Below are positions 3,296-59,171 of a stretch of 64,000 bases of DNA, piece by piece. This DNA comes from Octopus vulgaris. Lineage: Eukaryota. Each line of letters begins with the position of its first letter. Position 1 is the first letter of the stretch. Location: the NCBI GenBank assembly GCA_951406725.2, contig OX597815.1:15686001-15750000 (forward strand), in the 5' to 3' direction. Both the position numbers and the translations under genes were made by a program. The notes beneath the pieces were generated by a model. The model had not been told where the DNA came from. It ran no database searches and was given only the letters and a program-made list of their open reading frames with translations.

Positions 3296-59171
<55,876 letters not shown>

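Follow-up and report, generated by a model that had tools for sequence, protein, structure and literature searches.

An optional 18-nt microexon in octopus alpha-spectrin that likely predates the split between protostomes and vertebrates

Introduction

An intron of the alpha-spectrin gene of Octopus vulgaris holds an 18-nt segment between an AG and a GT, which raises the questions of whether so short a segment is a genuine exon, how old it is, what controls its use and what it does to the protein. The window analysed here is the whole stretch of 64,000 nt from contig OX597815.1 of assembly GCA_951406725.2 (positions 15,686,001 to 15,750,000). An earlier note, made from the sequence alone, had proposed a skippable, frame-preserving microexon orthologous to TYLLDG of vertebrate SPTAN1 and AYFLDG of SPTA1, of bilaterian ancestry and possibly a neural switch for the assembly of alpha/beta dimers. 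Skipping of SPTA1 exon 46, which marks the alpha-LELY allele, halves alpha-spectrin and impairs stable dimers according to the available text of two reports (PMC6617536, PMC5866036).

Results

The microexon and its surroundings

Tblastn with cuttlefish alpha-spectrin matched most exons of the gene in order from 59174 to 3299, many of them with 80-100% identity. The segment reads A CTC TGG CTT TTG GAT GG on the minus strand (9506..9489), is preceded by ...TGCTGTGAATTCAG with the acceptor TTCAG and followed by GTTATT, and divides the 2028-nt host intron (9888-7861) into parts of 382 and 1628 nt. It is in phase 2-2, between an upstream exon that ends in ...ACA AG and a downstream exon that starts with A GCT, giving R-LWLLDG-AAMMEG and inserting LWLLDG into the last repeat of alpha-spectrin. 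The sequence thus agrees with the proposed frame-preserving 18-nt microexon inside a 2-kb intron, and RNA joints fall at exactly these sites (Table 1).

The AG and GT flanks alone say little, because the host intron contains 35 stop-free, phase-preserving AG..GT candidates of 3-51 nt. Of the stop-free 18-nt segments flanked by AG and GT, 256 in the window when both strands are counted, the microexon has the top BLOSUM score against TYLLDG (21, with a runner-up of 12), and the 221-nt segment around it has a single match in its own genome. Purines lie close to the AG of its acceptor, the pyrimidine tract is displaced upstream, and no other AG occurs within 100 nt upstream. The TGC that had been placed directly before the AG is present but really lies at -14..-12. 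Low polymorphism was rejected as evidence: 9214-9566 shows no difference, but two 1-nt indels lie less than 100 nt from the acceptor and the region was picked post hoc.

Table 1. Coordinates of the microexon, its flanking elements and the host gene in the window
Feature	Position	Strand	Evidence
Cassette microexon, phase 2-2, LWLLDG	9489..9506	-	Sequence; RNA joint 7860->9489 in X1, X9 and X18; loose end at 9508 in X18
Upstream constitutive exon (repeat 20 end, last repeat start, ...WLTET-AG)	9889..10001	-	Joints 10000->10371 and 7860->9889 in all 7 runs; acceptor by sequence
Downstream constitutive exon	7805..7860	-	Sequence and RNA joints
Upstream intron, 382 nt, GT..AG	9507..9888	-	Sequence
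Downstream intron, 1628 nt, non-consensus donor GG/GTTATT	7861..9488	-	Sequence and RNA joints
UGC at acceptor -14..-12, candidate eMIC element	9518..9520	-	Sequence
CU-rich stretch (-30..-15) and displaced U-rich pyrimidine tract (about -85..-45)	9521..9591	-	Sequence
Host gene alpha-spectrin, multi-exon, matched part	3299..59174	-	tblastn with cuttlefish alpha-spectrin P0252

Inclusion and skipping in RNA

Seven of the 21 listed runs were examined, all as contigs and with coded tissue labels. The runs are not recorded as RNA, and were taken as RNA because canonical spliced joints are covered many times more deeply than the introns. All seven contain the skip joint 7860->9889, and three the inclusion joint 7860->9489, at depths of 2194 versus 1628 for the skip joint in X1, 691 versus 496 in X9 and 793 versus 811 in X18; the rough inclusion fractions by contig depth are about 0.57, 0.58 and 0.49, respectively. 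These three runs span three studies and two organism labels, and each contains both joints, as expected of a skippable microexon. In the contigs of X2, X4, X8 and X12 only skipping was detected, which does not mean zero inclusion, as contigs lose rare variants. In one comparison of X1, X2, X8 and X12 the joint table listed the inclusion joint for none of them, whereas the depth bin over the microexon is raised in X1 (402 versus 40) and flat in X2, X8 and X12.

Runs X8 (skip only) and X9 (inclusion) have a common study and organism label, and as they differ within one study, inclusion depends on the sample. The other inclusion joint, 9506->9889, is missing from the joint table in its direct form and appears only as a 10-letter loose end at 9508 in X18, whose letters match the end of the upstream exon. 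Thus, of the three junctions by which the earlier note would have its microexon judged, the skip joint and the downstream inclusion joint were seen outright and the upstream one only as this loose end. Being 18 nt long, flanked by AG and GT, used in mRNA contigs, found in both forms and frame-keeping, the microexon is real and alternatively spliced, with sample-dependent inclusion.

The segment in animal alpha-spectrins

A search with an insert-bearing region listed 120 proteins, 116 of which were parsed; the segment is present in 114 of these, as expected from a query biased toward insert forms. LWLLDG recurs unchanged in cuttlefish, abalone, scallop and centipedes, with MWLLDG in mites, spiders and a scorpion, MWLLEG in oysters and mussels, MWLLDP in Lingula and an 8-residue segment of the YRLLGWDG type in insects. 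TYLLDG was found in 67 of 68 vertebrate SPTAN1 matches to a query that carried the insert, and pig SPTA1 has AYFLDG at the equivalent position. The same gene, the same protein position and a similar sequence bear out the proposed orthology to both vertebrate peptides.

Isoforms with and without the segment were found in 15 of the 17 species that have at least two informative sequences among the cluster members. These 15 include three abalones, oysters, mussels, clams, Lingula, a locust, a termite, a spider and hagfish; Popillia and Mya, outside that count, also have both forms, and teleost models contain both; the isoform gaps begin exactly after the Arg. Most retrieved spider and scorpion gene models carry the segment. 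Some of the vertebrate skip models may be gene-model misses. Thirteen bird gene models (P0627-P0639) have YSL instead of the microexon and are probably gene-prediction failures. Retention in a mollusc, as first proposed, is correct and yet understated, for arthropods and brachiopods have the segment too, and the exon is already part of the public gene models of other molluscs.

SPTA1 exon 46, which we take to be 18 nt long, is the same segment in phase 2 as the octopus exon. In red cells exon 46 is normally included and its skipping defines a low-expression allele, whereas in octopus skipping gives a normal, abundant isoform. The TYLLDG cassette of vertebrate SPTAN1, presumably the "insert C" beside cardi+, shares the position, the length and the LLDG core and occurs in pairs with and without it in hagfish, whereas its first two residues differ from those of LWLLDG. 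In the literature searched, neither the tissue pattern of this cassette nor an SPTAN1 splice variant at this acceptor was found. Two teleost proteins (P0334, P0339) carry 21 extra residues right after TYLLDG, which we take to be the heart "cardi+" insert; optional exons are concentrated in this intron.

The literature search, which lacked most subscription papers, returned no report of an invertebrate ortholog of the exon or of its bilaterian-wide orthology, and there is nothing on the 18-nt exon in the available parts of PMC12626420, PMC6521328, PMC3249148, PMC10707146 and PMC4449188 or in the supplements of PMC12626424. The 15-nt microexon of C. elegans spc-1 is, in the available text of PMC7706725, either a different exon or given without placement relative to the 18-nt one.

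Intron position and origin of the exon

Among 80 animal loci from metagenome contigs, 10 have both flanking exons separated by an intron, the others being transcripts, intron-less or incomplete. In all 10 of these invertebrate loci the donor follows the AG of the same Arg codon (AG/G), in phase 2. A cassette of 21-27 nt encoding the orthologous peptide is found in seven, three of which are near-identical, leaving five independent cases; two of the remaining loci have short introns without a cassette, and one has the segment fused to the downstream exon. Across the loci, the microexon is fixed in some lineages, through fusion to the next exon or absence of both introns, and lost elsewhere with the intron remaining (L049:8545-8640; L051-L053, L057; L002, L058).

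In vertebrates, pig and deer SPTA1 have 242 residues after the Arg, and with a human SPTA1 length that we take to be 2419, this Arg corresponds to codon 2177. The human variant c.6531-12C>T lies in intron 45 (PMC6617536, available text), a numbering by which exon 46 starts at the third base of codon 2177, that is, in the same Arg and in phase 2. The vertebrate intron position is thus derived from the edges of isoform gaps and the c.6531 numbering. By this comparison, the invertebrate and vertebrate exons appear to share intron position and phase, as orthologous exons would. The presence of the segment in protostomes and deuterostomes, together with the same phase-2 intron in other phyla, supports the bilaterian ancestry that had been claimed.

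In the three choanoflagellates Monosiga, Salpingoeca rosetta and S. infusionum, the Arg and G-T-L-E are seven residues apart, which equals the skip form. The short form also occurs in Strongyloides, and another seven-residue entry is presumably a sponge, judging by its id. As choanoflagellates are short and the exon is widespread, it would have been inserted after the choanoflagellate split and before that of protostomes and deuterostomes, and skipping would yield the ancestral protein. The matches from Saccoglossus and Holothuria are short forms, in a search biased to short forms; the Monosiga query yielded vertebrate short forms for the most part and no cnidarian, and a tree of 31 C-terminal fragments left divergent proteins unplaced. 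Of 2408 background hexamers, 12 are at least as similar to 11 outgroup hexamers as LWLLDG is, and 4 at least as similar as TYLLDG, in a post hoc comparison; the DNA match between the microexon and the first 18 nt of the next exon is weak (8/18). The resemblance suggests that the exon was born by duplication of the start of the next exon. Overall, the last common ancestor of protostomes and vertebrates likely already had the exon.

Candidate regulation

The cephalopod acceptor combines a UGC with a CU stretch, a displaced tract and an extended zone free of AG, and the donor is weak; this combination fits most of the eMIC-target features described in the available parts of PMC8797185 and bioRxiv 2024.09.17.613571. 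Microexons of the SRRM3/4-Srrm234 system are likewise shorter than 27 nt and frame-preserving, and they too have UGC and CU-rich elements, a long stretch free of AG and a weak donor. A CUAAY branch-point motif was not found at the microexon acceptor. We propose that the weak acceptor and non-consensus donor would make skipping the default, with a tissue factor promoting inclusion. The most likely candidate for that factor is the neural Srrm234/eMIC system, at slightly better than an even chance; a factor in muscle or another tissue is the less probable, though serious, possibility.

The best-surviving competing explanation, which we hold to be rather unlikely, accepts the exon as real and ancient and places its regulation outside neurons, either in muscle or as broad inclusion with skipping in a few tissues, so that the UGC would be incidental. 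A random 16-nt window here contains TGC in 15-17% of cases, and TGC lies within -20..-5 in 3 of 45 other alpha-spectrin acceptors (picked automatically, a few perhaps wrongly); it is missing from this range in all six arthropod microexon acceptors compared, three of which have it at -22 or -25. The known eMIC-dependent Sptan1 exon of mouse, also the one deleted in zebrafish, is in the available accounts a 15-nt LSKLL exon different from the 18-nt one, whose ortholog is absent from the published fly and mouse eMIC tables, the fly table being without any alpha-Spec exon, which tells against eMIC control only insofar as the fly has kept the exon. Moreover, the available part of a 20-species study that includes octopus (bioRxiv 2026.09.05.749416) gives APBB and MADD as the only bilaterian-ancestral neural exons; spectrin goes unmentioned in its main text, and its supplements may list the exon orthogroup. 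The prevalence of the segment in spider and scorpion models also hints at broad inclusion in some lineages. Against regulation outside neurons stand the combination of features at the cephalopod acceptor and the RNA pattern: inclusion reaches about 50-58% in some bulk samples and was not detected in others, as would suit a cell-type switch.

Predicted effect on the last repeat

The isoform pair P0121 and P0008 is identical over 580 residues except for the six. In the AlphaFold models a single long helix ends in ...TRLWLLDGAAMM in the long form and ...TRAAMM in the short form, followed by the same EGTGS loop, so that with the microexon helix A of the last repeat is predicted to be six residues longer. 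The end of the long helix has a pLDDT of about 51 (541-550), compared to 78 in the short form, with the insert in only 10 of 43 alignment rows, and a bulge or a longer loop instead of a longer helix may also fit. A fold search returned spectrin/actinin folds only, and the alpha-actinin length falls between the two spectrin lengths.

In the three-helix-bundle topology, the end of helix A and the A-B loop sit at the rod tip, beside the EF-hand domain and the actin-binding end of the partner. The longer form would change the lateral contact or the stiffness at this tip. After skipping, AAMMEG would take the place of LWLLDG with the same x-x-hydrophobic-hydrophobic-acid-Gly pattern, and since this pattern is kept, the short form should fold, and it would be the ancestral protein. 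Inclusion would on this reading tune the alpha/beta dimer end.

The earlier note had instead envisaged an on/off switch for dimer assembly, as in alpha-LELY, with skipped chains being non-productive. Although the impaired dimers of SPTA1 lacking exon 46 speak for it, we regard such a switch as very improbable. Skipping was the sole form detected in four of the seven gene-expressing runs, and the short length is both the choanoflagellate state and hard-wired in genomic contigs that have lost the exon. In addition, SPTA1 is one residue shorter after the segment (12 versus 13 up to GTLE), so that its skip product differs. Tuning is preferred over switching because the short form occurs as the only one detected in those four runs and is the ancestral state.

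Other optional segments and repeats

A candidate 66-nt in-frame cassette on the minus strand (37928-37863) matches a segment present in some isoforms of cuttlefish, abalone, oyster, mussel and clam and absent from others. A second optional segment, of 5-6 residues, lies near residue 713 of mollusc and Lingula alpha-spectrins (P0276, P0258, P0301, P0294). An intronic high-copy repeat at 10084-10311, found in hundreds of contigs at very high depth in X1, X2, X8 and X12, is likely an expressed short interspersed element. The intronic ORF fragments 21123-21614 (+) and 38292-38936 resemble, by their motifs, a Helitron-type helicase and a LINE reverse transcriptase.

Discussion

Altogether, the explanation that we consider probable is an alternatively spliced 18-nt alpha-spectrin cassette that likely predates the split between protostomes and vertebrates and, when included, is predicted to extend helix A and would tune rather than switch the dimer end. 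Common origin is to be weighed against convergence, whereby the microexons of protostomes and vertebrates would have arisen independently within one intron, perhaps because the downstream acceptor and first codons were duplicated more than once. The available sources describe it as common that exons are gained repeatedly at equivalent positions; in addition, the segment resembles the residues after it, and the hemichordate and echinoderm matches are short forms only, in a search biased to such forms. However, hagfish, cephalopod, centipede and mite share the length, the phase and the LLDG core, and the aromatic W/Y at position 2 is absent from both downstream copies, which makes convergence very improbable. 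Chance intronic matching or functionless splicing noise, for which the 35 candidate segments in the intron might speak, has a negligible probability and is refuted by RNA joints showing about half of transcripts with the exon in three studies, by a peptide identical in cuttlefish, abalone, scallop and centipede, and by isoforms with and without it across species.

A further-reaching reading of the ancestral cassette, which we offer tentatively and think may well overreach, is that the alpha-LELY exon descends from a bilaterian-ancestral, neuron-regulated microexon that arose by duplication of the start of the next exon, has been optional ever since and sets a neuron-specific geometry of the dimer end. 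In that reading, the optional state of the exon is more than 550 million years old, being found in molluscs, brachiopods, arthropods and vertebrates. If true, the exon would stand beside APBB and MADD in a very small group of this kind, and the dependence of red-cell spectrin on it would be secondary.

The microexon class itself is known; what is notable here is the depth of conservation and the link to alpha-LELY. Alternative exons common to protostomes and vertebrates are reported to be very rare: the 20-species study has two confident ancestral neural exons, and fly and mouse have four position-matched eMIC exons, three of which are considered convergent. In the alpha-spectrin exon the sequence, the phase and the optional state have all been retained across phyla. 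A common human allele is thereby recast, in that the alpha-LELY skip product corresponds to an ancestral short form that is normal in invertebrates, and the natural isoform pairs with and without the segment allow one to ask which later changes made red-cell spectrin need these six residues.
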